NCBI GenBank assembly: GCA_046758865.1
Contig: JBHIBD010000002.1
Span: 4,128-68,127, forward strand
Length of the DNA: 64,000 bases
Direction of reading: 5' to 3'
Source of the DNA: Candidatus Brocadiales bacterium
Lineage (GTDB): Bacteria; Planctomycetota; Brocadiia; Brocadiales; Bathyanammoxibiaceae
The notes under the pieces are model-generated. The model ran no database searches and had not been told where the DNA came from. It worked only from the letters and a program-made list of their open reading frames with translations. A program made the translations under genes and the position numbers. Of the stretch, positions 32,533 to 62,963 are shown piece after piece. The stretch's first letter is position 1. Each line of letters opens with the position of its first letter.

Positions 32533-32563
32533 GATAAAAATTGCTGTAAAGGAGAAACGTTAA

Positions 32564-32751: not shown

Positions 32752-32767
32752 AAATATGGCGGCTGCG

Positions 32768-32859: not shown

Positions 32860-32916
32860 TGATGGTTGCCATTTTATGATGGGTTTAACGAGGCAACGGT
32901 ACGGTTGAAAAAGAAC

Positions 32917-45183: not shown

Positions 45184-45389
45184 TTGTTGCCCTTCCGCAG
45201 CGGGAGGGGGTAGAATAGCCTGTTCGCCCGCTGAGCAAACAAATTAGTTCATACCTGCACAAGTCAGCGTATTGGGCTACAGCTATGTTAAAGGGACAAA
45301 CTGCCTTAATTGCCTGAGAATTTAAACTTGCGTTTTATCCCTGTTGGCGTTATAGTTAGGGGCATCGTGAGTTCTTGAGGAGGAGGGCA

Positions 45390-47288
45390 ATGGCGGAGGC
45401 TCCCGAGGTAAGTGTCACCGTAGGATTCAAACAGCCAGAGCTCCTTGTATCCATACAAGAAGAACCCATAATAAGATATAAGGGTTCCCACAAACAGCTA
45501 CTCGAAGACAAGAAGTACGACGTAACTACCTCTTTAGACCAGAGTTGGTTTCCTCACAACATACCCTGTAGAGTGGGCTGCCCTATCGGTACTGACGCCA
45601 GGTCTTACTCACTGGCAATTTCTGAGGGCAAGAATCAGCTTGCCTACCTTCTCGCCAGACAGAATAACCCCTTTGTATCCGTCCTAGGAAAGGTCTGTAA
45701 CGCACCCTGTGAGCCCGTCTGCCAGAGAGCAAAGATAGATTCACCCGTGTCAATAAGGGCGCTCAAGGGCTTTGCCGTTGAAAAGAGCAGGTTTAGCACA
45801 AGAGAGGTTTACGAGTGGCTGAACACAAAGAAATCGAAGGTAAACCTGCCCCAGGGGGACAGACCCCCGCGTGTCGCTATTGTGGGAGGAGGCCCAGCGG
45901 GTCTATCTGCTGCACATGACCTGGCCCTTATGGGTTACAAGGTCAAGGTCTTTGAGGCATCCAGCAGGCTGGGAGGCATGCTAAACGCCATACCTCCATA
46001 CAGGCTGGATAGTGAGACTATAAAGAAGGATATTGATGGCATACTCTATTTGGGTGTTGAGGTTGAGACAAACAAGACCTGCGGGAAGGATTTTGGGATA
46101 GATGAACTCCTTGGGCAGTTTGATGTCGTTCTCTTAGCTACCGGTCTTCAGAAGGGCAAGTTACCAAGTATACCCGGCACAGGGCTTCAGGGTGTGCTTC
46201 ATGGAGTAGAGTTTATGAAGTGCGTTGTCTCTGGAGAGAGGGTGGAGCTGGGAAGAAATGTGGTGGTCTTGGGAGGAGACAACGTTGCTGTAGATATTGC
46301 CCGCACGGCCCTACGGCTGGGAGGAAGAAATGCACGGGTTAGCGTGGTTTGTGTTGAGGCCACAAAGGGTTCGAGGCCATACAGCCCAGAGGATGAGATG
46401 CCAGCCGATGCATCCAGGGTATCCGAGGCCAGGAAAGAGGGAGTCGTATTCCGCACCTCTCTAGCACCAGAGGAGATTCTGGGGGAGCGTGGCAGGGTTA
46501 ATGGGTTGAGGGTAAGGTCTGTTATCACAGTTTATGACAGTGATGGGCGTTTTAACCCTACATATAAGAGTGGAAAACGGCGAGTCTTGGGGGCTGATAT
46601 GGTTATCCTCAGCTTGGGCCAGGAGCTGGACCTGTCGTTCATAGAAAGATGCAAGGGCCTTGAGCCTACGGCTGATGGCGGGTTGGAGATGGACCCGGCG
46701 ACCATGATGACCGCCAAGAGAGGGGTATTCTTGTGTGGGGACATGGCTAAAGCCGGACATATTGTAGACGCTATAGCCTCTGGCCAGAAGGCCGCTCAGT
46801 CTATCCACCAGTATCTTGGAGGGACGGGTTCCCTGGGGCTGAAGGGCCCGAATGGAATTGAACCTGTTCACCACCATGAGAAGCATGACACCTTTGCCAT
46901 AAGGTGCTCAATATGGAAATTACTCCCGCCCGCGTTGTCCCCAAATAAAAGCAGGGGAAATATGGCGCTTGTGGAGGGAAGTTACTCCGATTACGAGGCA
47001 CGAAGACAGGGGCAGAGGTGCATTGACTGTAGTATAAGCCCTATGATTAGTCCTTATAATCCCTGTACCCTCTGTGGTGATTGTGTGGACTCGTGTCCGA
47101 CCGAGTGTATATCTATGAAGTTTATAAATAGGGCGGACCTTAATGGAGTACTGGGGGAGACCCGGGGTAACGGCCCCTGGGTGAGTCTCTTAATAGACGA
47201 CAGCGAATGTGTCCACTGTGGCGCGTGTGCAGAGGCGTGCAGCTCGGACTCTATATATATGGTGAGGTTTAAAGAGGTTAGTGGATAG
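45390..47288 (+). CDS. GltD-like FAD/NAD(P)-binding oxidoreductase with N-terminal FeS region and C-terminal 2x[4Fe-4S] ferredoxin domain (cluster 1)
   Basis: VAIVGGGPAGLSAAHDL, a second Rossmann fold, CTLCGDCVDSCP and CVHCGACAEAC. ATG 45390 follows GAGGAGGAGGG. Confidence 0.85.
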   Translation: MAEAPEVSVTVGFKQPELLVSIQEEPIIRYKGSHKQLLEDKKYDVTTSLDQSWFPHNIPCRVGCPIGTDARSYSLAISEGKNQLAYLLARQNNPFVSVLGKVCNAPCEPVCQRAKIDSPVSIRALKGFAVEKSRFSTREVYEWLNTKKSKVNLPQGDRPPRVAIVGGGPAGLSAAHDLALMGYKVKVFEASSRLGGMLNAIPPYRLDSETIKKDIDGILYLGVEVETNKTCGKDFGIDELLGQFDVVLLATGLQKGKLPSIPGTGLQGVLHGVEFMKCVVSGERVELGRNVVVLGGDNVAVDIARTALRLGGRNARVSVVCVEATKGSRPYSPEDEMPADASRVSEARKEGVVFRTSLAPEEILGERGRVNGLRVRSVITVYDSDGRFNPTYKSGKRRVLGADMVILSLGQELDLSFIERCKGLEPTADGGLEMDPATMMTAKRGVFLCGDMAKAGHIVDAIASGQKAAQSIHQYLGGTGSLGLKGPNGIEPVHHHEKHDTFAIRCSIWKLLPPALSPNKSRGNMALVEGSYSDYEARRQGQRCIDCSISPMISPYNPCTLCGDCVDSCPTECISMKFINRADLNGVLGETRGNGPWVSLLIDDSECVHCGACAEACSSDSIYMVRFKEVSG

Positions 47289-47297
47289 AAAAGGCTT

Positions 47298-47795
47298 ATG
47301 GGTAAGTCTGCAGTGAAGGCAGAAAATATAGCGAAAGTCAGCCGGCGTGAGGCCATGAGGAAGGGCATCTTCTGGGCCTGTTGGGGCACGTTCATAGGTT
47401 TTGCAGGTATGTTGGGCGCCAGCATAGTGCGCTATGCGTATCCGAGGATAGTTTTTGAGCCATCAAGCCTATTTAAGATAGGTAAGCCAGATGAATATGC
47501 GATGGGCTCGGTCACCCTGATAGAAGGCCGCAGGGTGTTCATTGTTCGGGACGAGAAGGGCTTTTATGCCCTTTCGGCCATATGCACCCATCTGGGCTGT
47601 CAGCCCATCTGGGAGGAGGATAAACAGATATTCATGTGTCCCTGCCACGGCGGGCGTTTCTACAAGGACGGGATAAACTTTGCGGGCCCGCCCCCAAGGC
47701 CCCTGCCCAGGCTACACATGGGTTTTGCCCCTGACGGCCGCCTCATGGTCGATAAGTCCAAAGAGGTCGGAATGGATTTTATATTAGTGGTCTGA
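47298..47795 (+). CDS. Rieske [2Fe-2S] subunit (cluster 1)
   Basis: CTHLGC and CPCHGG boxes, SRREAM Tat-like motif, TM anchor. Confidence 0.9.
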   Translation: MGKSAVKAENIAKVSRREAMRKGIFWACWGTFIGFAGMLGASIVRYAYPRIVFEPSSLFKIGKPDEYAMGSVTLIEGRRVFIVRDEKGFYALSAICTHLGCQPIWEEDKQIFMCPCHGGRFYKDGINFAGPPPRPLPRLHMGFAPDGRLMVDKSKEVGMDFILVV

Positions 47796-47805
47796 GAACT
47801 TTGCT

Positions 47806-48426
47806 ATGAAATGGGTTCCATTAGGTCTTGTTAGATATACGTTCTGTCTGGGCGGGCTTAGTGTCTTCTTTTTCCTGATATGCATACTTACCGGGCCATT
47901 CCTGATGATGTATTACATACCCAGCGTTGACAGGGCGTGGGCAGACGTCCAGGACCTGAGCAACGTGGTGCCGTTTGGCAGGTTTGTCAGGAACATCCAC
48001 AGGTGGTCAGCATGTCTCATGGTTATATGTGTACCAGCCCACATGCTGAGGGTGTTTCTCCAGGCAGCTTACAAGCCACCGAGGCAGCTCAACTGGCTGG
48101 TGGGGGTTACGCTGCTTTTGCTGACATACTTAATGGCCTTTACGGGGTATCTCCTGCCCTGGGATAACGAGGCCTACTGGGCGGCCACTGTAGGTATGAC
48201 CATGGCAGAGAACAGTCCAATACTTGGGGCCAAGGGTCCATTTAGTGTGTTGGGCCCGGATACGGACATACATTATATGTTACTGGGGGGTACAGTCTTG
48301 GACCAGCCATCTCTTACACGGTTCTTCTTTGCCCACTGCGTGGCTATACCCGGGGCTATGGCTGGATTAATGGGACTCCATTTTTATAATATCCACAGGG
48401 CAGGTGGGATGTCCGGCCCTCTATAA
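47806..48426 (+). CDS. Cytochrome b6-like subunit (N-terminal cyt b, cluster 1)
   Basis: H-x13-H (helix B) and H-x14-H (helix D) heme ligands, FCLGG cysteine, PWD(N/Q) motif. Confidence 0.9.
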   Translation: MKWVPLGLVRYTFCLGGLSVFFFLICILTGPFLMMYYIPSVDRAWADVQDLSNVVPFGRFVRNIHRWSACLMVICVPAHMLRVFLQAAYKPPRQLNWLVGVTLLLLTYLMAFTGYLLPWDNEAYWAATVGMTMAENSPILGAKGPFSVLGPDTDIHYMLLGGTVLDQPSLTRFFFAHCVAIPGAMAGLMGLHFYNIHRAGGMSGPL

Positions 48427-48470
48427 TGATTGAGGTTATTGTTTGGTGAGTACACTGTGCGGAGGTCCTT

Positions 48471-48498
48471 GTAGTGGTCGAGCGAGCTCGACCACTAC
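48471..48498. repeat. REP-like hairpin GTAGTGGTCGAGCGAGCTCGACCACTAC inside cluster 1
   Basis: Lies in the 130-nt cyt b6/subunit IV spacer. The paralogous spacer in cluster 2 is 12 nt. Confidence 0.85.
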
Positions 48499-48556
48499 AA
48501 GACTAATCCGCCCAAGACGGACTATACAAATTAACTGGCTGGAGGTTTAAACGACA

Positions 48557-49336
48557 GTGGCTGGTGGACCGCATACTGGTAAAGAAAGATACAGGGTGAT
48601 GACGGTCGTCAAGGGTGAGGCCCTGAAGTCCAGGGATATATACGAGAGGCCGCCCAAGTATGAACTTTTCTTCCCGAATTTTGTTATGAAGGAGCTATGT
48701 GTCGGGCTGGCCTTCCTAATTATCCTCTTTGTTTGGGCCTACTTTAGGAATGCCCCCCTATATGAGCTGGCCGATCCAGGAGAGACCCCGGAGCACATAA
48801 AGGCCGCTTGGTACTTTGTTGGATTGCAAGAGATGCTGGCCTATTTTGACCCCTATTTGGCAGGGGTGATTATCCCAAGTGCTATATTGGCAGGACTTTA
48901 TCTTGCTCCCTTCCTTGATCCGGACCCCGTAAAGGGAATAGGCCGTTTCGCCTGGAAGGAGAGGAGGTTCGCCATGTGCACCTTCCTTGGGGGGTTTGTG
49001 TTTTGGTGGATGCTGATAATAGTAGGGTGGTATTTTAGAGGACCTTTGTGGGCCTTTTACTGGCCGTGGGAGGACCATTCTGTAGTCAAGGCCACAGAGG
49101 CTGTACAGTGGAACTTTCCTTTACCTGCGGGGATAGCCTACATAGTCGTCTTTTTTACCCTAGGAAACATTATACCTGCAATTATCTTTCCAAGGTTCTT
49201 TTACCGTCTGGGGATTGTTAGATACGTCATAACCATGTCCCTGTGGACGGGAATGATTTTTGTTGTGGCTAAGATGTTTCTGAGAAACGCCTTTGGCATT
49301 AAGTACATTTTAGTAACTCCATGGTTTAACGTGTGA
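48557..49336 (+). CDS. Cytochrome b C-terminal / subunit IV-like membrane subunit (cluster 1)
   Basis: KAAWYFVGLQEMLAYFDP (PEWY-like motif), multiple TM segments, GTG start. Confidence 0.82.
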   Translation: MAGGPHTGKERYRVMTVVKGEALKSRDIYERPPKYELFFPNFVMKELCVGLAFLIILFVWAYFRNAPLYELADPGETPEHIKAAWYFVGLQEMLAYFDPYLAGVIIPSAILAGLYLAPFLDPDPVKGIGRFAWKERRFAMCTFLGGFVFWWMLIIVGWYFRGPLWAFYWPWEDHSVVKATEAVQWNFPLPAGIAYIVVFFTLGNIIPAIIFPRFFYRLGIVRYVITMSLWTGMIFVVAKMFLRNAFGIKYILVTPWFNV

Positions 49337-49348
49337 GAGTGATGGGAT

Positions 49349-50692
49349 ATGATACCATTTCCAATTAATCTGTCCATTCCCTGGCTCATAGCGTTTCTGG
49401 TATTTGCGTGTGGCCTCGTAGCAACTTGTACTATATGGATATTTACCGAGTGGGGCGAGCCTGAGTGGAAGAAATATCAGCGGATAGAGCTAACGGAGAT
49501 GCGAGAAAACCTTGAAAAACAGTTACCCGTGCTGGAAGACCCCAAGTGGGGCGACCCCTCACAGGCCAAGATAGTAAGGGCCTCTATAGAGTTTCTCCGT
49601 AAACCGGACTACCAGATAAAGCAGATAATACTAAAGGGCCGAGGTAGCTGGAAGGAAGGCACAACCGGCATACCGGTGGACAGGTGCATGACCTGTCACA
49701 TAGACGAAGACAAGCTTACCAAGCAACACCCCTACACCAAAGACCACTTTGCCTATGACATCTATGGCTGCACGGTCTGCCACGAGGGCCAGGGCAGGGT
49801 GCTGACGAAGGAAGGTGCCCACGAGGGAATGTTGCGCAACAAGAGAGATATGATGCAGAGGATACAGAAGCCAGAGGAGATGGTGGCTTTATGGGAGAGG
49901 ATGGCCAAACTCTCTGTAGAGGAGGGAGATACGGCCTTTGATTTTAGGGATTATAGCGCTGCCGGAGAGAAGCTTGTGTACATGGGCAGCTTTGGCTGTC
50001 TTAAGTGCCATAGAAAACTTACCCCACGCCACGTTGAGGTGTGGGCGGATAACAAGTTCAAGACCTGGGAAAAGGTGCAAGCGGCAGAAGATTATGTTGA
50101 AGGTGACGAGAATTACCAGAAAAAGTGTTTGAAGTGCCACACCACGGGTTATGACGAAAAGACCGGTGAGTACGCCGAAGAGAACGTCACCTGTGAGGCC
50201 TGTCACGGACCGGGTGAGATGTATGTCAAGTTCATGAGCGAGGGAAAGCTGGCAGAGGCCGCTGTGGTGACCTACGAAGTGTTTAGTTTCAAGGTCTGCG
50301 GGAGATGTCATGTGTCGCGCAGACACGAGATGAGAGAGGCCATGCTGTTGGCTGTAGAGGAGGAGGAGGAGTTCTCAGAATGGCTGGCATCGTCCTTTGT
50401 TGAGGAATCAGATGCCCTTCACGCCAGCATTTCTGAAGAGACGGAGGCCTTCGGGTTAGAAGAACTGAAGGGATTGGAAGAGGTAGCTAACTCGTTGGAT
50501 ATGATGCTGGAGGATTTAAGGACATTGTTGCCTGAGCAAGAAGAAACTGTTCAAACTGCCGAGGAAGTGGAGCCTGACGGTGAAGGACCGCCACATCCAC
50601 TGAGGGCCAGACTAGAGGCCCCTGAGCCTTTCATGCAAGAGGCCCAGGCAGAGACGGCCAAAGAACCATTTAGTGGTAAGGGTGTGTATTAA
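49349..50692 (+). CDS. Membrane-anchored hexaheme cytochrome c with acidic C-terminal tail (cluster 1)
   Basis: N-terminal TM and six CXXCH motifs (CMTCH, CTVCH, CLKCH, CLKCH, CEACH, CGRCH). Confidence 0.88.
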   Translation: MIPFPINLSIPWLIAFLVFACGLVATCTIWIFTEWGEPEWKKYQRIELTEMRENLEKQLPVLEDPKWGDPSQAKIVRASIEFLRKPDYQIKQIILKGRGSWKEGTTGIPVDRCMTCHIDEDKLTKQHPYTKDHFAYDIYGCTVCHEGQGRVLTKEGAHEGMLRNKRDMMQRIQKPEEMVALWERMAKLSVEEGDTAFDFRDYSAAGEKLVYMGSFGCLKCHRKLTPRHVEVWADNKFKTWEKVQAAEDYVEGDENYQKKCLKCHTTGYDEKTGEYAEENVTCEACHGPGEMYVKFMSEGKLAEAAVVTYEVFSFKVCGRCHVSRRHEMREAMLLAVEEEEEFSEWLASSFVEESDALHASISEETEAFGLEELKGLEEVANSLDMMLEDLRTLLPEQEETVQTAEEVEPDGEGPPHPLRARLEAPEPFMQEAQAETAKEPFSGKGVY

Positions 50693-50697
50693 CCCGG

Positions 50698-50791
50698 GTA
50701 GGGGCACGGCATGCCGTGCCCCTTACTGGAGGTTGTCTGTAGCGTTGGAGCTTGCTCCAACGTTGAACGTGGCAGCAAGCTGCCACGCTAC
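50698..50791. repeat. REP-like hairpins inside cluster 1
   Basis: GTAGGGGCACGGCATGCCGTGCCCCTTAC (50698-50726) and GTAGCGTTGGAGC...GCTGCCACGCTAC (50739-50791). Confidence 0.85.
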
Positions 50792-50914
50792 ATTAAAAAT
50801 ATTTTTGCAATAAATGGATAACCGAGTGTAAAGAAAGGGGGTGGTGAAAAGGTATAAAAGAAGGCTAGTAGATCTCTCGTTACTAGAGGGAAATTTAAAA
50901 AAGGGGGATTAAGT

Positions 50915-52642
50915 ATGAAACAATGGAGCTTGCTTGCAGTGTTACTCTGTACGGGCTTGATTCTGGGAGTAGCGCCCAGTGCGGCGGTAGCCGAGGGGCC
51001 CTTCGCTGGTGATCCCAACGCCACCGTGGCAGCAGACCTTCCTCCTCTCAACCTGATGTACCCAGATAAGATGAAACCGGCCTGGGAGGAGTGGGTAGGT
51101 CTTGAGATGGGCGGTGGGCCTTTTAGGAAGCTTTATAGGCCCATACCCATGCACATGTACATTGCTCCCACAAAGCACTATATCAGGCCTGACATGTCTG
51201 GGTTTGCTGAGTTGTTCAAGAAGTTCCAGCCCGGCCAGTGCGAGGAGTGCCATATGGAGGTAACTCCCGGCTGGGTCCACCAGTGGGAAGATTCTGCCCA
51301 CGGCAACCCGAAGCACAAGGCAAAGTGGGCCGAGAAGACGAAGGCAATAGAAAAGAAGCTGGGCAGGACACTTGACAAGGTGGGCTGCGCTGAGTGTCAC
51401 GGCTCAAGCCACGACAGGCTTCAGATGCCCAACCTGGACAACTCCTGCGCACACTGCCATGAGCAGCAGGCCAAGGAGTTTGTCGCCGGGAAGAAGCAGG
51501 GCAGACCGAGCCACTTTCACAGTTGGATCTCAAATATTGTACCCCCCTGGTATATTGAGAACTACAGGAGGGGTGAAGGTGCAGGCATGATTGGCTGCGA
51601 CGTCTGTCACCCTGAGATGCAGCGCTGTGACGGCTGCCACATGAGGCATCTCTTCGGCACCAAGATGGCCAAGAAGCCCGGCACCTGCGGAAAGTGTCAC
51701 ATGGGTTATGACCACCCGGACTATGAGTCCTATACCAAGTCCGCTATGGGTGTTATCTATCAAGATACTGGCGCCGAATGGAACTGGGACTTGAACATGG
51801 AGGACATAGTCCCTGGTAAGGACTGGAGGGCGCCGACCTGTGCCTACTGCCATATGTATCAAGGCGGTGGGAAGTGGGGCCACACCGAGAACATCAATGG
51901 CATCTGGCGCATGGGTGTCTATAAGCCCAAGCAGAGGAACTATGAGTACAAGTCCAGCTTGAAGAATTCTCCCTACGGGATAAACATCCCGCCTCTTAAC
52001 AGGATTGTGGATGTTGACTCACCTGAGCTCAAGAAGAGAAGGGAGAACTGGATTGAACTCTGCTCCAACTGCCACAGCCCACGCTTCTCCAGGCTCTGGC
52101 TGGAGAACCTGGACGAGTTCATGCTGATAGGCTGGCAGCACACGGATGCAAGTATGGCCGTGTTGGACGACCTGTATAAGGCAGAGGCTATTATACCCAC
52201 GCCGGAGAATCGTGACCCATGGTTTCTTGGTGACGTGCTTGCCGACATACTGGGGCCGAAGAAGCTGGGTGAGACCCTTTACAACGCCTTCAAGACCACA
52301 CAGGGCCACTTCCCGATTTATGGGCCTATCCTTGCTACCGGCGACCAATATGTGACAGGTCCAGGCCGGCCGCACGAGATAGAGCTTTACCTTAATGAGC
52401 AGTGGTTCAGTCATCTGCTGAAGGCCTTCAAGGGTACTGCCCATGCCCAGCAGGATTACTCCTGGTGGTACGGTTGGTCGCCGATGTTGAAGGACCAGGC
52501 CAGGATACAGTCTAACGCCGTTAACCTCTACAGGCTGCTGGCTATAGAGAAGAAGCTAGGTATCAAGGCCAGTGGAGAACTGCCCAGCGACAAGAAGATT
52601 TACGGGCATACTCCTCTCTACACCAGCGGTAAGAGGAAGTAG
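50915..52642 (+). CDS. Octaheme hydroxylamine-oxidoreductase-like (HAO-family) cytochrome c (cluster 1)
   Basis: Signal peptide and eight CXXCH motifs (CEECH, CAECH, CAHCH, CDVCH, CDGCH, CGKCH, CAYCH, CSNCH). Confidence 0.88.
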   Translation: MKQWSLLAVLLCTGLILGVAPSAAVAEGPFAGDPNATVAADLPPLNLMYPDKMKPAWEEWVGLEMGGGPFRKLYRPIPMHMYIAPTKHYIRPDMSGFAELFKKFQPGQCEECHMEVTPGWVHQWEDSAHGNPKHKAKWAEKTKAIEKKLGRTLDKVGCAECHGSSHDRLQMPNLDNSCAHCHEQQAKEFVAGKKQGRPSHFHSWISNIVPPWYIENYRRGEGAGMIGCDVCHPEMQRCDGCHMRHLFGTKMAKKPGTCGKCHMGYDHPDYESYTKSAMGVIYQDTGAEWNWDLNMEDIVPGKDWRAPTCAYCHMYQGGGKWGHTENINGIWRMGVYKPKQRNYEYKSSLKNSPYGINIPPLNRIVDVDSPELKKRRENWIELCSNCHSPRFSRLWLENLDEFMLIGWQHTDASMAVLDDLYKAEAIIPTPENRDPWFLGDVLADILGPKKLGETLYNAFKTTQGHFPIYGPILATGDQYVTGPGRPHEIELYLNEQWFSHLLKAFKGTAHAQQDYSWWYGWSPMLKDQARIQSNAVNLYRLLAIEKKLGIKASGELPSDKKIYGHTPLYTSGKRK

Positions 52643-52656
52643 TGAGTGATTATTAT

Positions 52657-52699
52657 GGGGGAGCCGCCTGCTCAAGAGTAGGCGGCCCCTCCATTTTTT
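52657..52699 (+). terminator. Rho-independent terminator after HAO-like gene 1
   Basis: GGGGGAGCCGCCT / AGGCGGCCCCTCC stem (one mismatch), 10-nt loop, then ATTTTTT. Confidence 0.6.
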
Positions 52700-52800
52700 A
52701 GATTTGTGTTGTTGTGTCTTTCTACGGGTGTTTGTTTTTTTCTCCGGGGGTATAGGATCGAGGAGTTTAGGTGGCTTAATAGTTTTTGCAGGGGACTTTG

Positions 52801-53300
52801 ATAAGGGTTCCATTCTAAACTGCGTTAAAAGGAGGAGGACCGCCAATGCCACTTAGGGGCGAGACTGATGCTACTACTTCATTGGATGTGAAAAGTGCAA
52901 TAGACCTTCAGCCCACGGAGCTGAAGATTAACCCTGCTGGAAAGGTGACTCTCACCCTCCCCGGGATGAAGATAAGGCTGCCCGATGTTAAGGTGAAGCT
53001 CTGGTTTATGCCCCTTATCCGAGTGAGTGGCATGGAGGTGACTACGGAGCCTGCAAACCTCGAGGTGGATTTGTCGGATACGACAATGGAGGCCAGGGTA
53101 GAGCGTGCTACAAAGATAGAGATTCTTACTAATGGAGAGGTAAAGGCGCACGCCAAGCTGGAGGGTTCGGGTAGCCTCCAAGGCGGACCTATGAGCCTGG
53201 AGATTCCCGCAGATTAACTTCTTCCTGAGTCGAGAACAAGTCAGTAGATCACGGGTTTTATGTTGTGGCCTATGAACGTTTCTCTGTGCCTGTATCTAAA
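52801..53300 (+). repeat. 500-bp perfect direct repeat, copy 1 (copy 2 at 62362-62861)
   Basis: Line-by-line comparison at offset 9561 shows no mismatch. Identity drops sharply at both ends. Confidence 0.9.
52846..53217 (+). CDS. Orphan 123-aa acidic, beta-rich hypothetical protein (copy 1)
   Basis: Strong RBS AAAGGAGGAGG 8 nt before the ATG. No signal peptide, TM segment or Cys. Identical second copy and one degraded third copy. Confidence 0.6.
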   Translation: MPLRGETDATTSLDVKSAIDLQPTELKINPAGKVTLTLPGMKIRLPDVKVKLWFMPLIRVSGMEVTTEPANLEVDLSDTTMEARVERATKIEILTNGEVKAHAKLEGSGSLQGGPMSLEIPAD

Positions 53301-53516
53301 GAGAGTAATGGGTTTTAGTTGGGAAAGACTGCCATTCATGTGCCCTCATGTCTGACCTCCCAGCCCTTTCTGGGCCTGCTTGCCCTAAGTAGTTCTTAAG
53401 GAAAGAGGACCACTACCACAACCCTCTTTAAGGTTAAAGATCAACTCTCCACCCGCCTTGACTTTTTTAAAAAAAGTTCTTGCAAATACTATTTTGTGTG
53501 GTATAGTTTTCGACAT

Positions 53517-53675
53517 GATGTTGAGAATAGTATCATCTAAACTATACATGTCGAATAATACGGCATCTGTCGTAAGACTATACAGTTTTCTGGTATTCAG
53601 CTTATGGTGTTTAGGCAATATCTAGCGGCCTTCGTTGGCCCCCTCTATCCAATGCATTGCTTTGGCTATCGAGGG
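53517..53675 (+). pseudogene. Diverged copy of the comF upstream region plus its first ~22 codons
   Basis: Aligns without gaps to 1971-2129. About 80% identity by eye (59/72 over the coding part). Confidence 0.8.
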
Positions 53676-53689
53676 AAGGCACACGCAGG

Positions 53690-54199
53690 GGGCCTGCTAA
53701 TTCTGTAACAATAAACTTTAAGACTGTAGCAAAAACCTCACCTTAAAACGGCAGGAATAATGATGAGGGATAGTAGGCGAAGCATCCTTCAACAATCCAG
53801 CCTTGCCTCTGGTACGGCCGTTACCCTCGGTCTTTCAACGTCTACCCCCTCTTACGAGTTAACATACTCTGATTTGAACCCCCTCAAACAAAAATGGCAA
53901 GTGGTGATAGTCTCATTTTCTTATAGAGAGAAGATGTGTACAAAGGGCCTGCTAATTCTGTAACAATAAACTTTAAGACTGTAGCAAAAACCTCACCTTA
54001 AAACGGCAGGAATAATGATGAGGGATAGTAGGCGAAGCATCCTTCAACAATCCAGCCTTGCCTCTGGTACGGCCGTTACCCTCGGTCTTTCAACGTCTAC
54101 CCCCTCTTACGAGTTAACATACTCTGATTTGAACCTCCTCAAACAAAAATGGCAAGTGGTGATAGTCTCATTTTCTGATAAAGGGAAGATATGCGCAGA
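53690..54199 (+). repeat. Two tandem 255-bp units, each containing a Tat-signal-like 5' gene fragment
   Basis: Period 255 (53693 aligns to 53948). Produces the twin 67-aa ORFs 53760.. and 54015.. (MMRDSRRSILQQSSLASGTAV...). Confidence 0.88.
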
Positions 54200-54347
54200 G
54201 AGCCTGTCAATTCTATAGCAATAGACTTCAAAGAAGATGCATTCTCGATATCTCTAGAAGAGCTCTCCCTAATAAGGGCCAAGCATCTGGAGGCCGCACG
54301 GCGATCTGCGCTGAGTGATATACCTATAGCCACCTCTGTGAATAAGG
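54145..54347 (+). pseudogene. 5' fragment copy B of the cluster-2 oxidoreductase gene (leader plus ~52 codons)
   Basis: Aligns to 54782-54984 at offset 637. ORF 54191 encodes MRREPVNSIAIDFKEDAFSISLEELSLIRAKHLEAARRSA.. Confidence 0.8.
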
Positions 54348-54348
54348 G

Positions 54349-54544
54349 ACTTTGTAAGAGTCCCATTCTATCTAACTGTGTAAAGGAGGGGACCGACAAT
54401 GCCACTTAGGGGCGAGACGGACGCTACTGTTTCATTTTCTAAGGAGATGAAGGTAAAGGCCAAGGATAAAGAGGTCAATGGTAAGGGCATCATAGAGCTG
54501 TTAACACTTGGCGCTGAGCAGGGTACTGATATACGCATCATTGC
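54349..54544 (+). pseudogene. Chimeric fragment: RBS plus first ~12 codons of the 123-aa ORF joined to a 99-bp internal piece of the HPr gene
   Basis: 54349-54435 resembles 52796-52883. 54446-54544 aligns to 3951-4049 (KVKAKDKEVNGK..IELLTLGAE.GTDIRI). Confidence 0.8.
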
Positions 54545-54584
54545 TAGACGAAAATGTCTTAATTGTAAACGGTGTAAACAATGT

Positions 54585-54768
54585 GAGAGGGAAAATATGC
54601 ACAGAGAACCTGCCAATTCTATAACAATAAACTTCAAGGAAGGTGCATTCTCGATATCTCTGGAAGAGCTCTCCCTGATGAGGGCCAAGTAACCACAGAG
54701 GCCGCACGGCAGCCTCCAGGGCGGACCTATGAGCCCAGAGATTCCTGTGAATTAGCTTCTTTCAGAGG
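54585..54768 (+). pseudogene. 5' fragment copy C of the cluster-2 oxidoreductase gene joined to the 3' end of the 123-aa ORF
   Basis: 54597 ATG...MHREPANSITINFKEGAFSISLEELSLMRAK. 54711-54768 resembles 53173-53230 (SLQGGPMS.EIP). Confidence 0.75.
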
Positions 54769-54827
54769 AGTGGATAGTCTTAAAAATGGTAAGTGGTGAT
54801 AGTCTCATTTTCTTATAAAGGGAAGAT

Positions 54828-56795
54828 ATGCGCAGAGAGCCTGTCAGTTCTATAACAATAAACTTCAAGGAAGAAGCATTCTCAATATCTCTAGAAGAGC
54901 TCTCCCTGATGAGGGCCAAGCATCTGGAGGCCGCGCGGCAATCTGCGCGGAGCGATATACCTATAGCCACCTCTGTGGATAAGGAATGGTTTAGTGAAAA
55001 TGTACCCTGTCGCCGCACCTGTCCGGCTCGCACCAATGCCAGGGGCTATGTAATGGCCATTGCTGAAGGCAGGTACCAGGAGGCCTATCTGATTGCCAGG
55101 AGGAATAACCCCTTTGTTTCCGTCTGCGGCAAGGTCTGTGGTGCGCCCTGTGAGTCGGCCTGCCGGAGGGGCAAGGTGGATGAGGCGGTATCTATAAGGG
55201 CCTTGAAGGATTTTGCCGTAGAAAGCAACCGCCTGAGTACTGAAGAGGTTTATCGCTGGCTGGGGCAGAAGATGGAGAGGGTGGTGCCGGTGGTGAGGGG
55301 GAGGAAGTCTCCCCGTCTCGTTTCAGTTTGTAGTGAGCGCACTCTTTCAAGCCAACCCGTTTGCTCCCCGGCCCGGGTGGCAATAGTTGGTGCGGGGCCC
55401 GCCGGTCTTTCGGCCGCCCATGACCTGACCCTCATGGGCTATCAGGTAAAGCTCTATGAGGCCAGCAGTAACCCTGGTGGTATGCCTGCCAATGCACTGC
55501 CCTTCTTCAGGCTGGATAGAGAGGCGGTGAGGAAGGATGTGGAATCCATACTCTCTCTGGGCATAGAGCTGGAAGTTAATAAGGTCTGCGGAAAGGACTT
55601 CAGCATTGACCAGCTCTGGGAGGAGTTTGATGCAGTCCTTATAGCAGTGGGGCTCCAGAAGGGGAGGGTTATCCCCATCCCAGGGGTGGAGTTGTCGGGG
55701 GTCTTATCGGGGTTGGACCTCTTGATGGACGTAGCGGCTGGCCGAAAGGTTACTTTGAGTCAGAAGGTAATGGTAGTGGGAGGGGGATGCGTGGCTACGG
55801 ATGTAGCCAGGGCAGCGGTGAGATTGGACTCCACCAGGGAGGTGCACCTGGTATGCCTAGAGGCCATGAAGGGCTGTAGACCCGATGATCCCAGGGAGGA
55901 GATGCCTGCCTGGGTCGGTGACGTTGTAGATAGTAAGGAGGAAGGAATCATCTTTGATACCTCCTGTAGCCCCAAGAGGGTGGTGGGTCAGAATGGCAGG
56001 GTCAAAGGTCTAGAGGTGATAAGGGTAAGCTCTGTTTACGACTCTGAGGGTCGTTTCAAACCCACCTATATCCCAGGTACAGAACGTATCATAGAATGCG
56101 AGAACATCCTCTGGGCCGTGGGTCAGGCCCCTGATATGAGTTTCCTGGAAGGTAGTCAGGGTTTTGAGCTTAACCAGAGGAAGATGCTAAAGGTAGACCC
56201 CGTTACCCAGGCCACTTCCAAGCCTGGAGTCTTTGCCTGTGGTGACATCCTGGGTCCTGGCCTGGTAATAGACGCAGTAGCCTCGGGTCAACGGGCTGCC
56301 CAGGCCATCCATCAGTACCTGGGAGGTAGCGGCTTCCTGGGGTTGAGCAGACAGGTGCGCATGGAGGCTATACCCGTTCCCCGTAGGTTTGAGAGGTTCT
56401 TCCCCGGAATCTCCTTGAAAAGGCTACTTCCTGCCCTGCTGCCTCCCAAGGAGAGGCTCAAGGGATGGGAGGCCGCAGAGATACCTTACTCGGAATACGA
56501 TGCCCGGGAACAGGGCCGGCGGTGCCTCAACTGCAATGTCAGCCCGATAATAGGGCGGGAGAGGCCGTGTATCCTCTGTGGGGGTTGTGTAGACGTCTGC
56601 CCCACCAGGGCTATCTCTATGGTCTATCTGGATGATTCAGTGGTGAAAGAGTCAGCCCTCTTGGATGGCGGGGCAGGTGGTGGGCCCTGGGTAGGGCTGA
56701 CAAAAGATGAGGAGCTTTGCATCCACTGCGGGCTGTGTGACTATCGCTGTCCTGTTGATGCCATTTCAATGGTGAAGTTTGAGGAAATCTTGTAG
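54828..56795 (+). CDS. GltD-like FAD/NAD(P)-binding oxidoreductase with FeS domains (cluster 2)
   Basis: Paralogue of 45390-47288. VAIVGAGPAGLSAAHDL, CILCGGCVDVCP, CIHCGLCDYRCP. Confidence 0.85.
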   Translation: MRREPVSSITINFKEEAFSISLEELSLMRAKHLEAARQSARSDIPIATSVDKEWFSENVPCRRTCPARTNARGYVMAIAEGRYQEAYLIARRNNPFVSVCGKVCGAPCESACRRGKVDEAVSIRALKDFAVESNRLSTEEVYRWLGQKMERVVPVVRGRKSPRLVSVCSERTLSSQPVCSPARVAIVGAGPAGLSAAHDLTLMGYQVKLYEASSNPGGMPANALPFFRLDREAVRKDVESILSLGIELEVNKVCGKDFSIDQLWEEFDAVLIAVGLQKGRVIPIPGVELSGVLSGLDLLMDVAAGRKVTLSQKVMVVGGGCVATDVARAAVRLDSTREVHLVCLEAMKGCRPDDPREEMPAWVGDVVDSKEEGIIFDTSCSPKRVVGQNGRVKGLEVIRVSSVYDSEGRFKPTYIPGTERIIECENILWAVGQAPDMSFLEGSQGFELNQRKMLKVDPVTQATSKPGVFACGDILGPGLVIDAVASGQRAAQAIHQYLGGSGFLGLSRQVRMEAIPVPRRFERFFPGISLKRLLPALLPPKERLKGWEAAEIPYSEYDAREQGRRCLNCNVSPIIGRERPCILCGGCVDVCPTRAISMVYLDDSVVKESALLDGGAGGGPWVGLTKDEELCIHCGLCDYRCPVDAISMVKFEEIL

Positions 56796-56809
56796 AGAGG
56801 TCGTATGCG

Positions 56810-57328
56810 ATGTTTAAGTCTAAGTCTATGACTCATAGAGAGGGAGCTATACCCCTGGGGCTCAAGAGGCCCTCCAGACGGCAGGCCCTGTGGACTGCGC
56901 TCTGGTGGAGTGGCTGGGGGGTAATCTTTGGCATGCTCTGTGTTGCAGGGGCAACCCTGGTGCGGTTCCTCTACCCCAGGGCCACTTATGAGCCCTCTAA
57001 GGTCTTTAAGGCCAAGAGGCCTGAGCAGTACGCAATGGGCTCGGTAAACCTGGTGCCCGGCCGAAAGGTCTGGATAATACGGGAAGAGAGGGGCTTTTAT
57101 GCCCTCCTGGCCATATGTACCCATCTGGGTTGCCAGCCGGTGTGGTATGAAAGCCAGCAGATATTTAAATGCCCCTGCCACGGCAGCCGCTTTTATAAGG
57201 ATGGGATAAACTTCGCTGGCCCGGCCCCCAGGCCCCTGGAGCGCATGGAGATTACCTTGGCTAGCGATGGGCGGCTGGTGGTGAATGAGGGCAAGGCAGT
57301 GGATATAGACTACTTCCTGAATGTCTAG
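56810..57328 (+). CDS. Rieske [2Fe-2S] subunit (cluster 2)
   Basis: CTHLGC and CPCHGS boxes, SRRQAL Tat-like motif. Confidence 0.9.
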   Translation: MFKSKSMTHREGAIPLGLKRPSRRQALWTALWWSGWGVIFGMLCVAGATLVRFLYPRATYEPSKVFKAKRPEQYAMGSVNLVPGRKVWIIREERGFYALLAICTHLGCQPVWYESQQIFKCPCHGSRFYKDGINFAGPAPRPLERMEITLASDGRLVVNEGKAVDIDYFLNV

Positions 57329-57351
57329 CTATTCCTTTTAGGAGGAGAGCG

Positions 57352-58086
57352 ATGAATATATTCGTCCAGATATGGAGGTCTATATTCAGGACTGGTGTCT
57401 CTGACAGCCCCCTCCACCGGGTCTTCCGGGTGGTGGCAAATTTTATCCTCCATATCCATCCGTCCCGGGTGAGCAAGGAAGGCATAAAGTTTAATTACAC
57501 CTTCTGCCTGGGTGGGCTCAGCCTCTTCTTTTTTGTAGTCACTGCCATAACCGGTGGGTTTCTGATGATTTATTATGTACCCGATGTGGATAAGGCCTAT
57601 TCCAGCATGAAGGACCTGGACGATGTAGTACCTTTCGGCACATTTCAGAGAAACCTCCACCGCTGGGCAGCCCACCTGATGGTCGTCTTTGTGCCCCTGC
57701 ACATGCTAAGGGTATTTTTGACCAGCTCTTATAAACCACCCAGAGAGTTTAACTGGGTCATCGGGGTGGGCCTGCTTATGATAACCTTCTTGCTCAGTTT
57801 TACGGGCTATCTACTGCCATGGGACCAGTTGTCTTTTTGGGCAGTAACGGTAGGAGCTACCATGGGGGAAAATACCCCTCTTCTGGGCGCTAAAGGCCCT
57901 TTTAGCCTCTTGGGTCCGGAAGAGGATGTCCATTTTATCCTTTTGGGTGGCACCGCCATAGACCAGCCTACCCTCATCCGCTTTTATTTTGCCCACTGTG
58001 TGGGCCTGCCAGGGGCCGCAGCGGGATTAATGGCCATCCACTTCTGGAGGATTAGAAAGGCAGGAGGCATCTCTAGGCCCTTGTAG
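57352..58086 (+). CDS. Cytochrome b6-like subunit (cluster 2)
   Basis: H-x13-H, H-x14-H, FCLGG. 38 aa longer at the N-terminus than copy 1. Confidence 0.9.
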   Translation: MNIFVQIWRSIFRTGVSDSPLHRVFRVVANFILHIHPSRVSKEGIKFNYTFCLGGLSLFFFVVTAITGGFLMIYYVPDVDKAYSSMKDLDDVVPFGTFQRNLHRWAAHLMVVFVPLHMLRVFLTSSYKPPREFNWVIGVGLLMITFLLSFTGYLLPWDQLSFWAVTVGATMGENTPLLGAKGPFSLLGPEEDVHFILLGGTAIDQPTLIRFYFAHCVGLPGAAAGLMAIHFWRIRKAGGISRPL

Positions 58087-58098
58087 TGTCTTAGACCA

Positions 58099-58875
58099 AT
58101 GGCTGAGAAAACAGAAAGCAAAGAAAAGGTTAGACTCCTTACCGTGGTGAGAGAGGACGTCCTGCTCAGGCAGCGGGATGTCTATCCTAAGGAAGTGAAG
58201 GTAGACACCTGGCCCCACTTGGTGAAGAGGGAACTCATAGCCCTGCTGGCGGCCTCCGTAGTGCTGATGGTCTGGAGCCTGGTACAGGATGCCCCCCTGG
58301 AGGAGCTGGCCAATCCTAGTGAGACCCCCAAGGAGGCCAAGGCCCCCTGGTATTTCGTGGGCCTGCAGGAACTGCTGGTATATTTTGACCCCTGGATAGC
58401 AGGGGTGGTGCTGCCTACGGTCATCCTTATTGGCCTGGCCATTATACCCTATATAGACCCTGACCCTGTAAAGGGGGTGGGCCGCTACACCCTTGGGAAG
58501 AGAAAGTTTGCCGTGTCCTGCTTCATTGGTGGCTTTGCTATGTGGTTTGTCTTGGTGGTAGTGGGACAGTATTTTCGGGGTCCCTTCTGGAGCTTTTACT
58601 GGCCCTGGGAGGGCCGGGAGGTGGTGAAGCCCATGGAGGCGGCCCTGGTCAGTTTCCCCCTGCCAGTAGGCATAGCCTTTCTGGTATGTTATGGGGCCCT
58701 GGTGCTCATCCTCCCTGCTATCTTCTTCAAGAATTTCTTCTTCAGGCTGGGCCTTATACGATATTTCATTACCATGAATCTATTTGCTGGCCTGCTCTTT
58801 GTGCCTATCAAGATATTCCTGAGGCACATCTTGCATGTCAAATACATACTGGTAACCCCCTGGTTTAACGTGTGA
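58099..58875 (+). CDS. Cytochrome b C-terminal / subunit IV-like subunit (cluster 2)
   Basis: KAPWYFVGLQELLVYFDP. Paralogue of 48557-49336. Confidence 0.82.
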   Translation: MAEKTESKEKVRLLTVVREDVLLRQRDVYPKEVKVDTWPHLVKRELIALLAASVVLMVWSLVQDAPLEELANPSETPKEAKAPWYFVGLQELLVYFDPWIAGVVLPTVILIGLAIIPYIDPDPVKGVGRYTLGKRKFAVSCFIGGFAMWFVLVVVGQYFRGPFWSFYWPWEGREVVKPMEAALVSFPLPVGIAFLVCYGALVLILPAIFFKNFFFRLGLIRYFITMNLFAGLLFVPIKIFLRHILHVKYILVTPWFNV

Positions 58876-58887
58876 AGGTAAAGCGAT

Positions 58888-60216
58888 ATGGCATGGAGGA
58901 TACCCTTTGTTGTCTTATCGGTAGCCCTGCTGGGCCTGCTCATCATCTGGATTATCAGGGAGATTAACCCCCAGTGGAAGGGCCATCAGGAGGCCGCTTA
59001 TGCCCAACAGGTGGAGAGACTGGAGCAGGAGTTGGAGAGGTGGTCCGACCCTAAATGGGGGGACCCTGTCACGGCAGAAAAGGTGAGACAGAGGATTGAG
59101 GCCCTAAAAAGACCCCACCTGGGAGTAAAACAGATACTCCTTAAAGGCACCGGGCTCTGGAAGGAGGGGGAAAACGGGGAGAAGGTGGACAGGTGTATGA
59201 CCTGCCATATAGATGAAGACAAATTGGTAGAACTGCACCCCAAAACATTTGATTATTTCCCTTATGACATCTATGGCTGTACGGTCTGCCACGGAGGTCA
59301 TGGCGAATCCCTCCGGCTGGAGAAGGCCCATAAGGGCATGCATACCGACAGGAAAGAGATGATAGGTACGATAGACACCGCTGACGCCGTGCTGGAACTG
59401 TGGAAGGAACTGGCCAAACTCTCCCCGAAGGAGGACCAAAGGGCCTCAGATTATAAGTATTACAGCATAACCGGCGAGAAGGCGGTCTACGTGGGCAGCA
59501 TCACCTGCCTCAGGTGTCACAAGGGCCTCACCACCTGGCACATTAACCGCTGGAAGGACAACAAGTTTGTCACAATGGAACGGGTCAAAAAGGCCAGAGA
59601 TTTTATAGAGGGTGATGAAGACTACAGGAAGAAGTGTTACAAGTGCCATACCACCGGGTACGATGAAGAGAGCGGCAAATATGTAGAGGAAGGTGTGACC
59701 TGTGAGGCCTGCCACGGACCCGGCCAGCTTTACGTTTATTTTATGAGTATGGGAAAGGTAGAAGAGGCCCAGAGGCTCAGCAAGCTGGGCTTTAGCTACG
59801 AGGTCTGTGGCAGATGCCATATGGCCAGGCACCACGAGATGAGGGCTCAATTCCTGGCCAAGATTCAATCCGAAGGCCCGAAGTCCCAGGTTCTGGCGCA
59901 GGAAGTAGAAAAGAAAGAGGCCCTTCAGAAAGAAACCTCTCAGGAAGAGGTGATACCTGTTTCCTTACAGGTGCCCGTATTTGAGGTGTCTCCAGAGATA
60001 TCCCCCTTCTCGGAAGACAACACCATCAGGGAAATTAAACTGGTAATCCCTGAAGTAGGGGCTGCCCCTCCGGCCCAGAAGGCTGAGGAGCAAGAAGCCG
60101 TGTCTTTGGATATAGATAATAGAAGTACCCACAGTGGAAAGGAGGGATTACCCCTTAAAACCCAGACTGAAGCCTTACAAGAAGCAGCGACCACACCTCG
60201 AGGCGAAGACCCATAG
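58888..60216 (+). CDS. Membrane-anchored hexaheme cytochrome c (cluster 2)
   Basis: Six CXXCH motifs (CMTCH, CTVCH, CLRCH, CYKCH, CEACH, CGRCH). Confidence 0.88.
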   Translation: MAWRIPFVVLSVALLGLLIIWIIREINPQWKGHQEAAYAQQVERLEQELERWSDPKWGDPVTAEKVRQRIEALKRPHLGVKQILLKGTGLWKEGENGEKVDRCMTCHIDEDKLVELHPKTFDYFPYDIYGCTVCHGGHGESLRLEKAHKGMHTDRKEMIGTIDTADAVLELWKELAKLSPKEDQRASDYKYYSITGEKAVYVGSITCLRCHKGLTTWHINRWKDNKFVTMERVKKARDFIEGDEDYRKKCYKCHTTGYDEESGKYVEEGVTCEACHGPGQLYVYFMSMGKVEEAQRLSKLGFSYEVCGRCHMARHHEMRAQFLAKIQSEGPKSQVLAQEVEKKEALQKETSQEEVIPVSLQVPVFEVSPEISPFSEDNTIREIKLVIPEVGAAPPAQKAEEQEAVSLDIDNRSTHSGKEGLPLKTQTEALQEAATTPRGEDP

Positions 60217-60269
60217 TCCCCAGGGAGGTTAAGTGGGAGTAGAAAAAACCTTATAAGGAGGGAAGCGTT

Positions 60270-61877
60270 ATGAGATTACTGTTCATCATAGGGTTGGCCA
60301 CAGCAGTTATTTTGCTAGGGCCGAGTCAAGTCCAGGCCCAACAGGCCCCTGAGGGGAAGTCTTATACCTATCCCTCAGAGTCTCTTAAGAAGATGTACGA
60401 AGAGCACGTGGGGCTGGATAAGGGAGATGGCCCCTTTGCTGAGGCCTATAAGCCCATACCTCTCTACATGTATATGAGTCCTGCCAGGCACTACATACGG
60501 CCAGACATCAAGATGTTTGCTGAGCTGCTGGAAAAATTTCAGCCCGAGCAGTGTATAGAATGCCACACCGAGGTCACCCCGGGGATAGTCAAGGCTTGGC
60601 AGAGCTCCACCCATGCCCAGCCCAAGAAAAATGGGTATTTCGCCGCAAAGACCGCTGAGATAGAGAAGCGCCTGGGACGGGAGATAAAAGAGGTATACTG
60701 TGGGGATTGCCACGGCAAGAACCATGATGTGCTGCAGATGCCCACCGTGGATAATTCCTGCGGAGAGTGCCATGTGCAGCAGGCAGAGGAGTTTGCCTCT
60801 GAGAGGGAGTATGGTCGGCCCAACCACATCCAGAGTTGGGAGTCCAACGTGGTGGTGCCCTGGTATATAGAGATATACCGCCAGGGGGAGGGCGCCTCCC
60901 TGATAGGCTGTGACCTGTGCCATGTGGAGATGGCCAGATGCGACGGATGCCACACCAGGCATAGCTTCTCAGCCGCTGAGGGCAGGAGGCCCCAGGCATG
61001 CGGTAGTTGCCACATGGGACCAGACCACCCCGATAGGGAGACCTACAGCTATTCTAAGATGGGCACTATTTACGACCTGGAGGGTGAACACTGGCCCTGG
61101 GACAAGCCCTTGAAGGATGTCGTTCCTGGAGAGGACTATAAGAGCCCCACCTGTCAGTATTGCCATATGTATAAGGGGGGTGGGGAATGGTGGATTAACC
61201 CCGTCAGCAAGGGCATCTGGCGCATGGGCACCGTACCTCCGAAGGAGGTAGAGTATCAGTCCAGCCTCAAGGATTATCCCTACGGAATTACTATCCCTCC
61301 TTTGAATAAGAAGCTGGAGATATATTCCCCACAGAATCTCCAGAAACGAGAGCAGTGGATAGAACTGTGTGGCAGGTGCCACAGCAGCCGCTTTGCCCGA
61401 CTGTGGCTGGAAAACCTTGACCAGTATATGTTCCTGTCCTTCAAGAAGCAAGACCAGGCCCAGAAGATACTTGATGAGGTCATTGCCGAGGGGCTGCTTG
61501 ACCCAGCTCCTGGAGACAGGGCCATCTTCCCTATGGGGGATGTACTGGCCGAGGCCCTGGGTCCAGATAATTTAGGGATGGGTATCTACAAGGCCTTTAA
61601 GGAGAGTAAGGGGCATATCCCTGTAGTAGGCCCCATCCTGGGGGTCTACTCTGCTTTCATCACGGGACCCGGCAATCCCAGTACTATAGAGAGGGAGTAC
61701 TCGGAGATGTGGTTCTGGTACAAGCTCAAGGGCTACAAGGGCACAGCCCATGCCCAGCAGGACTACTCCTGGTGGTATGGTTGGTCACACATGATTGGTT
61801 CACTAGCCCACATCCAGGATGAGGCCGACAAGCTCAGGAGGCTCAAGGCCCTGGAGGTGACAACCAAGCTTAAGTAA
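60270..61877 (+). CDS. Octaheme HAO-like cytochrome c (cluster 2)
   Basis: Signal peptide and eight CXXCH motifs (CIECH, CGDCH, CGECH, CDLCH, CDGCH, CGSCH, CQYCH, CGRCH). Confidence 0.88.
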   Translation: MRLLFIIGLATAVILLGPSQVQAQQAPEGKSYTYPSESLKKMYEEHVGLDKGDGPFAEAYKPIPLYMYMSPARHYIRPDIKMFAELLEKFQPEQCIECHTEVTPGIVKAWQSSTHAQPKKNGYFAAKTAEIEKRLGREIKEVYCGDCHGKNHDVLQMPTVDNSCGECHVQQAEEFASEREYGRPNHIQSWESNVVVPWYIEIYRQGEGASLIGCDLCHVEMARCDGCHTRHSFSAAEGRRPQACGSCHMGPDHPDRETYSYSKMGTIYDLEGEHWPWDKPLKDVVPGEDYKSPTCQYCHMYKGGGEWWINPVSKGIWRMGTVPPKEVEYQSSLKDYPYGITIPPLNKKLEIYSPQNLQKREQWIELCGRCHSSRFARLWLENLDQYMFLSFKKQDQAQKILDEVIAEGLLDPAPGDRAIFPMGDVLAEALGPDNLGMGIYKAFKESKGHIPVVGPILGVYSAFITGPGNPSTIEREYSEMWFWYKLKGYKGTAHAQQDYSWWYGWSHMIGSLAHIQDEADKLRRLKALEVTTKLK

Positions 61878-62129
61878 GTCACCCCACTGGTGACTGAGGA
61901 GAGGGCCCCCCCTGCCCCAGGCATGCCAACCTGGGTCAGACAGAGCCCACCTCTGTAAGTCCACCCTCCGTGTGGGTAAGGGCTCTCTCCTTTTCTATCA
62001 TAAATATGCGTGCCCATTTCGCATGTGTCGGGTTTTTCGGAGGGTTCGTATGGTTTAAGGCCCATTTCTACGGGTGTTTGTTTTCTCTCCGGGGTGCAGG
62101 TTCGGGGGGTTTAGGTAACTTAATAGTTT

Positions 62130-62861: not shown

Positions 62862-62963
62862 AAGGGTAATAGTTTTTAGTTGGGAAAGACTGCTATTTAT
62901 GAAAAAGTTTTGGGTAAAAGGGCGTTTATTTACAACTGTGTCTCAATAAGGGGGTATTCTATA

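Follow-up and report, generated by a model that had tools for sequence, protein, structure and literature searches.

The small Rieske/cytochrome b (R/b) subunits PetG/L/M/N and the subunit-IV-like proteins are single transmembrane helices. The R/b complexes of anammox bacteria have been modelled without any protein of the kind described here, and the HAO-like subunit was not placed in these models (PMC12954380). Another small protein, Kustc1130 (Broful02728), is an anammox-specific assembly factor of about 10 kDa for hydrazine dehydrogenase, which belongs to the HAO family, and it has an endogenous signal sequence (PMC6469936). Our literature search returned nothing on kuste4575, and the R/b papers contained no mention of a protein like the one described here.

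The window, by which we mean the whole stretch of 64,000 nucleotides that was analysed, carries two paralogous R/b clusters, A and B, whose proteins are 45–55% identical. Both have the order GltD-like FAD/FeS protein, Rieske protein, N part and C part of cytochrome b, multihaem cytochrome c and HAO-like octahaem protein. The HAO-like genes are located at 50915–52642 (A) and 60270–61877 (B), and each of them is followed by a copy of the same small gene, as had been originally predicted. The features of the region are listed below.

45375–52642, + strand: R/b cluster A, assigned with Pfam; the same gene order is found in L003, L008, L012, L013 and L018.
52655–52694, + strand: intrinsic-terminator hairpin and U-run after the HAO-like gene of cluster A (dG -31.2 kcal/mol, z -4.9).
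52730–52788, + strand: intergenic element lying after both HAO terminators, 75% identical to 62074–62132 by sequence comparison.
52801–53300, no strand: 500-nt tract identical to 62362–62861 (0 mismatches, ungapped comparison).
52833–52838, + strand: Shine-Dalgarno sequence AGGAGG, 7 nt before the ATG; the equivalent in copy 2 is at 62394–62399.
52846–53217, + strand: small-protein gene, copy 1 (123 aa), recognised from its ORF, homologues, dN/dS and conserved ATG and Shine-Dalgarno sequence.
54346–54767, + strand: copy 3 of the small gene, a mosaic pseudogene (DNA comparison, Pfam PF00381).
54828–61877, + strand: R/b cluster B, assigned with Pfam; orthologues are found in L005, L015 and L025.
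62006–62028, + strand: hairpin resembling a weaker terminator, downstream of the HAO-like gene in cluster B, missed by a stricter scan.
62407–62778, + strand: second copy of the small-protein gene, with the same sequence as copy 1, following the HAO-like gene in cluster B.

A gene for a Tll0287-like protein with one CxxCH motif lies right after copy 2 (62880–63608); in L015 its homologue (25–318) is located upstream of the B-type cluster instead. Further away, the window contains two tRNA genes and a large bacterial SRP RNA (31905–33186; Rfam RF01854, 181 bits).

Compared with the described systems, the protein shares with the small R/b subunits its size and its location with or near R/b genes, but it has no hydrophobic stretch that could form a transmembrane helix and its hydropathy is beta-type throughout. 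It resembles Kustc1130 in being small, cofactor-free, anammox-specific and tied to an octahaem enzyme of the HAO family, and by this analogy Kustc1130 would be the closest functional precedent for a role in assembly. The two sequences are unrelated, as the profile of 44 family members matched 0 of all PDB chains at E <= 10. Kustc1130 is exported and acts inside the anammoxosome, whereas the window protein has no export signal, and Kustc1130 is not described as being encoded beside its partner. Kustc1130 is also reported to be highly expressed and to organise an enzyme of the HAO family (PMC6469936).

The ORF at 52846–53217 is a genuine protein gene that is under purifying selection across its whole length of about 120 aa. 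Pairwise dN/dS in the + frame ranged from 0.07 to 0.25, with third-position changes predominating, and a strong Shine-Dalgarno sequence and a conserved ATG were present in 24 of the 24 family genes examined. A first homologue search recovered 18 clusters with 45–100% identity, which were 120–123 aa long apart from two fragments and, where named, all came from Brocadiales metagenome genomes. Profile searching extended these to about 46 clusters of 82–145 aa, again all from Brocadiales metagenome genomes, and a third iterated search found nothing new, so that the family closes at about 46 clusters, with no fused domains. An exhaustive phmmer search of 1.84 billion representatives returned only 7 matches. 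One of these, a Big_3/SLH surface protein (P0025, phmmer E 1.4e-4), was rejected as a relative, with an hhalign probability of 2%. In the alignments, the members share a single domain of 102–123 aa with the core G-K-x4-(L/I)-P … K-L-W-F-x-P … T-E-P … (D/N)-L, and the synteny tables place the gene directly 3' of the HAO-like gene in R/b clusters that begin with the GltD-like gene (GltD-first clusters). The original prediction, which had argued against a chance ORF, is thus borne out by the 46 homologue clusters, the selection in the + frame and the conservation of ATG, Shine-Dalgarno sequence and length, and the ribosome-binding site that it called near-ideal is indeed AGGAGG at 7 nt ahead of the ATG.

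No library that we searched offered a name for the protein. The window protein had no match above threshold in Pfam, NCBIfam, PHROGs or PADLOC, which together with the empty PDB search agrees with the earlier view that it belongs to no recognised family. The family is small and confined to Brocadiales, with no detectable relative in any curated library.

The protein is predicted to be soluble and cytoplasmic, with a mass of about 13 kDa and a hydropathy pattern typical of short beta strands with Pro/Gly turns between them. Neither Cys nor Tyr occurs in its 123 aa, and Trp, Phe and His occur once each. Its N-terminus (MPLRGETDATT…) is polar, conserved and without a hydrophobic h-region, and no other hydrophobic stretch is present, so the earlier description of a protein with no Cys, no signal peptide and no transmembrane segment holds. 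Since the start is the first possible one after a stop codon and there is no upstream in-frame start, no longer form hides a signal peptide. A catalytic N-terminal proline, as in the tautomerase idea, was rejected, because the stand-alone subfamilies begin with MQ or MA. Alignment-averaged hydropathy showed a beta-type periodicity along nearly the whole chain, with a peak at 150 degrees. AlphaFold2 reached a pLDDT of 33.5 with 18 sequences and 42.4 with 44 sequences, and both models contained only short beta strands; the all-beta pattern noticed in the original prediction therefore agrees with both hydropathy and low-confidence secondary structure, and is still a predicted one. A Foldseek search of PDB with the low-confidence model gave a best E of 0.28 and TM scores below 0.26, which are meaningless. 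No internal repeat was found, the weak echo between the N-terminal and C-terminal parts having an E of 0.21. The invariant or nearly invariant positions in the alignments are G32, K33, P39, F54, P56, T67, E68 and L76. These are mostly Gly, Pro or hydrophobic, with some charged residues among them and no conserved histidine; such a pattern would be expected of a structural or binding protein rather than of an enzyme or a cofactor binder.

The evidence that ties the gene to the R/b-HAO clusters comes from other genomes. In every GltD-first cluster for which downstream sequence was available (about 20 loci), one or two family genes were located directly after the HAO-like gene and on the same strand. 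These loci are the window (twice), L003, L005, L008, L010–L013, L015–L018, L024–L029, L053, L063, L091 and L092, of which L024–L029, L053 and L063 came from a metagenome scan with an HAO alignment, and L091 is Ca. Tripitaka sp. YC43. The carriers belong to Ca. Bathyanammoxibiaceae and Ca. Tripitaka, and include Ca. Bathyanammoxibius and the Rifle genomes FULL_50_35 and FULL_52_36, which have been placed in Ca. Bathyanammoxibiaceae (PMC9723696). The genes beyond the small gene vary from locus to locus and include antiporters, DNA ligase, radical SAM, amidase and a porin-like gene. As these change while the small gene stays, the small gene moves with the cluster.

The linkage has a clear boundary. 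Among the R/b-HAO clusters that begin with the Rieske gene (L037–L041, L048 and L049), which is the order of Kuste4569-4574 (PMC12954380), a family gene was found in 0 of 7, with up to 6 kb of downstream sequence available; these loci are on contigs of about 40% GC. Stand-alone HAO-like genes had no family gene beside them either. The most divergent members of the family (102–121 aa, 25–39% identical) are single genes in unrelated contexts on contigs of 32–42% GC. The Rieske-first clusters therefore indicate that the R/b complex as such needs no family gene in cis and, together with the distant stand-alone members, that the protein cannot be a universal R/b subunit; the distant members further suggest that the basic function of the family may be independent of R/b. 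The tie to the R/b-HAO clusters is thus tight, ancient and robust, yet specific to the lineages with the GltD-first architecture. Of the original claim that the gene persists beside both complexes, for which co-occurrence with R/b-HAO clusters across Brocadiales had been named as a check, the part that stood is the adjacency in some 20 GltD-first loci of other genomes and the window, while the general co-occurrence failed at the Rieske-first clusters and the stand-alone members.

Several variants of this arrangement were observed. Tandem paralogues, 'a' followed by 'b' with about 45% mutual identity, are located after the HAO-like gene in L001, L008, L016, L018, L024, L063, L091 and L092, and such pairs in deeper-branching genomes hint at a heteromeric pair; the lineage of the window has the 'b-like' type only. 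In genomes like FULL_50_35 (L011, 3285–6085; L022, 989–3765), HAO575-like genes flank the small gene on both sides, the second HAO-like paralogue lying about 600 nt downstream. One B-type lineage (L026–L029 and L053; for example L027, 7589–7843) has a shortened, divergent version of 85 aa that contains only the family core and matches the family profile with E values of 1e-15 to 1e-18. The A-type loci L010–L013 and L018 share, downstream of the family gene, a block with two or three cation/proton-antiporter-like and several universal-stress-protein-like genes, a position that cluster B occupies in the window.

The small gene is probably a transcription unit of its own. A strong hairpin with a U-run follows the stop codon of the HAO gene in 12 of 16 loci, and a terminator-like hairpin between the HAO gene and the small gene would usually mean separate transcription, or transcription by read-through only. 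The original prediction had noted the terminator ahead of copy 1 and a possible own promoter, and the hairpin at 52655–52694 and its equivalents elsewhere fit a separate unit. The element at 52730–52788 may serve the small gene as promoter or regulatory region, and in the closest relative, L010, it is just partly recognisable. In the 123-aa group (window 52776–52832; L010, L012 and L013), a short GGG…CCC hairpin followed by CCCATT(C/T)TA is located about 25–50 nt before the ATG and may be a 5' stem-loop, an attenuator or a -10-like box. The leader of copy 2 additionally contains a MITE-like insert at 62175–62305, with 38-nt GC-rich inverted repeats (62175–62212 and 62268–62305, 79% complementary) separated by 55 nt. 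It lies within about 210 nt that are absent from copy 1 and are flanked on both sides by TTTTG, and it occurs once in the window.

The perfect identity of copies 1 and 2 had been taken as a sign of a dedicated function, and this argument did not survive. Homology between the two regions extends over 52793–53340 overall, with 6 mismatches in the 40 nt beyond the identical tract and no similarity thereafter. The upstream elements at 52730–52788 and 62074–62132 are 75% identical, which corresponds to the general divergence of A and B. In the tree, copy 2 groups with the genes linked to A-type clusters, apart from the genes found behind B clusters elsewhere, and these B-type followers are 52–65% identical to the window protein and form branches separate from the A-type followers. 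Because a tract of 500 identical nt lies inside a region of 75% identity and copy 2 has A-type affinity, we read the identity as a recent gene-conversion tract, in which one copy would have overwritten the other within an older paralogous region of about 75% identity; the B clusters of other genomes carry a different member. Beyond hinting that the B-type protein can be replaced by its A-type counterpart, such a conversion is uninformative about function. The identical tract is exactly 500 nt long with limits on round coordinates of the window, which is probably a coincidence, and this perfect repeat sits within a contig assembled from a short-read metagenome.

A third, broken copy that keeps the ribosome-binding site and the first 10 codons (MPLRGETDAT) at 54399 had also been predicted, and it proved to retain the last ~16 codons as well. 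Its parts are as follows.

54346–54436, + strand: 5' leader, ribosome-binding site and 13 codons of the small gene, 84% identical.
54445–54550, + strand: fragment of the HPr domain of the gene at 3859–5868, with 88.7% DNA identity.
54588–54710, + strand: copy of the 5' end of the GltD-like gene at 54828–56795, from DNA comparison.
54690–54692, + strand: in-frame stop, read from the sequence.
54708–54767, + strand: 3' end of the small gene, 82% identical, with the last ~16 codons at 54708–54755.

From these comparisons, copy 3 is a mosaic pseudogene, the middle of which was replaced by an HPr fragment and the 5' end of the next gene. The insert scored 28.6 bits against the Pfam HPr model PF00381, above the cut-off of 23 bits. 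It covers only positions 27–64 of 81, short of a complete domain with its N-terminal phospho-histidine region, and is therefore a fragment and not a functional HPr. The donor gene of this fragment, a fused HPr-enzyme I (3859–5868), belongs to a nitrogen-PTS-like set at 2816–5868 that also contains a ribosome hibernation factor-like gene and an EIIA-Ntr-like gene (3339–3821). The region between clusters A and B (53341–54827) is a 1.5-kb patchwork of short, diverged duplications, comprising two tandem 255-nt units (53690–54199, 95–97%), four to five copies of the 5' region of the GltD-like gene (near 53692, 53947, 54204, 54610 and 54841), a piece 80% identical to 1971–2130, and the HPr fragment. 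As these copies are 80–95% identical, they look like old scars of illegitimate recombination rather than assembly errors.

We tentatively propose that the protein stays in the cytoplasm and, without being redox-active itself, binds to the R/b-HAO module as a partner or helps in its assembly, and we give this reading a probability of roughly 35%. With no means of binding a redox cofactor and no export, it is probably a non-catalytic binding protein. The small gene would be transcribed from its own promoter behind the cluster terminator and translated from a very strong ribosome-binding site, and the protein would act on the cytoplasmic side as a peripheral partner or as an assembly or escort factor of the GltD-first R/b-HAO module. 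The HAO-like protein is exported, and as the small protein carries no signal for export, it is unlikely to bind mature HAO directly; the candidate partners would be the GltD-like subunit on the NAD(P) side, or the not yet exported precursors of the HAO-like or Rieske protein. Binding may occur by pairing of beta strands, which would fit the failure of AlphaFold2 to fold the lone chain. The terminator that separates the small gene from the cluster counts against a partner, and the main reasons for caution are the stand-alone paralogues and the Rieske-first clusters without the gene.

The main rival reading, possible if on balance doubtful, is that the protein is a small beta protein acting autonomously, such as a structural or scaffold protein that assembles with itself, or a stress protein, and that its place after the HAO-like gene reflects inherited gene order and no functional tie to the R/b complex. 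The stand-alone paralogues in unrelated contexts would then be natural, as would the terminator-bounded unit with its very strong ribosome-binding site, which suits an abundant protein, and the several paralogues per locus. The failure of AlphaFold2 to fold the monomer would be expected if folding needs self-association, and Usp genes are frequent further downstream in A-type loci. However, in lineages ranging from Bathyanammoxibiaceae to Ca. Tripitaka the gene remains adjacent to HAO although all that follows it differs, each of the paralogous clusters A and B has retained a family gene, and the sequence has neither an internal repeat nor a bactofilin-like signal.

A bolder version of the partner reading, which we consider unlikely, is that the protein has a new beta fold that forms only on its partner, and that it is a stoichiometric subunit on the cytoplasmic side, docking or regulating the GltD-like NAD(P) module on the Rieske/cytochrome b-HAO complex in deep-branching anammox lineages only.

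A distant relationship to LmeA-like (PF11209) or AMIN (PF11741) domains, which would make the protein a beta domain that binds lipid or the envelope, is quite improbable. P0014, which is 72% identical to the window protein, matched LmeA over residues 19–107 (E 7.8e-4, 20 bits), and nine members of a 118-aa subfamily matched AMIN over residues 4–46 (E 0.0056–0.19). All these matches are below the curated cut-offs: the LmeA score of 20.0 bits, against a cut-off of 27.3, came from 1 of 44 members and aligned only positions 49–131 of a beta-rich model of 217, and the best AMIN score was 17.2 bits (P0032) against 20.5. The window protein and most of the family match neither model, and alternating beta patterns could yield such scores from composition alone. 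AMIN is likewise an all-beta module of about 100 aa, and the weakly matching first ~45 residues of the one subfamily include a motif of the '…LxLPG…' type, but AMIN domains are exported and form the N-terminal part of amidases and secretins, whereas the family is single-domain and the window protein is stand-alone and predicted to be cytoplasmic, with no signal peptide and no upstream in-frame start. We treat both similarities as possible leads and not as assignments.

A RiPP precursor, in which a short core at the C-terminus would follow a long conserved leader and a Gly-Gly-type site (…QGGP…), is highly improbable. The conserved G-G-P lies 3–9 residues from the C-terminus and radical-SAM genes adjoin in L005, L009 and L019, but such a neighbour, the expected conserved maturase, is missing from the window and most loci, the very short tail is conserved rather than hypervariable, and purifying selection extends over all 120 aa. 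No NHLP or Nif11 match was obtained, nor any NCBIfam family at E <= 1 for three members.

That the conservation stems from an RNA element or an antisense gene is barely credible: the antisense -2 frame is open in nearly all orthologues (0–1 stops over about 120 codons) and shares its wobble positions with the + frame, but it is open because the sense protein has no Tyr and is scarce in His and Gln, it has a stop throughout the 123-aa group and no conserved start, and its dN/dS was the higher in 12 of 12 pairs (0.13–0.28 against 0.08–0.18), whereas the + frame has 0 stops in 16 of 16 orthologues and conserved positions of ATG, Shine-Dalgarno sequence and stop. Rfam gave no match at the locus, and RNAalifold on a MAFFT alignment found no consensus structure in the 5' leader; conservation better explained by an RNA structure on either strand had been named in the original prediction as a refutation.

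The family described here is clade-restricted, small and predicted to be all-beta, and next to GltD-first R/b-HAO clusters it has a candidate role as their partner. If it were unrelated to the complex, it would be one more clade-restricted protein family. In either case, the gene serves as a lineage marker that separates the GltD-first from the Rieske-first cluster types. For the anammox Rieske/cytochrome b complexes, the small protein is a candidate extra partner; if the stoichiometric-subunit reading were true, it would belong to the machinery that has been proposed to connect quinol oxidation with nitrite reduction and NAD(P)H formation.
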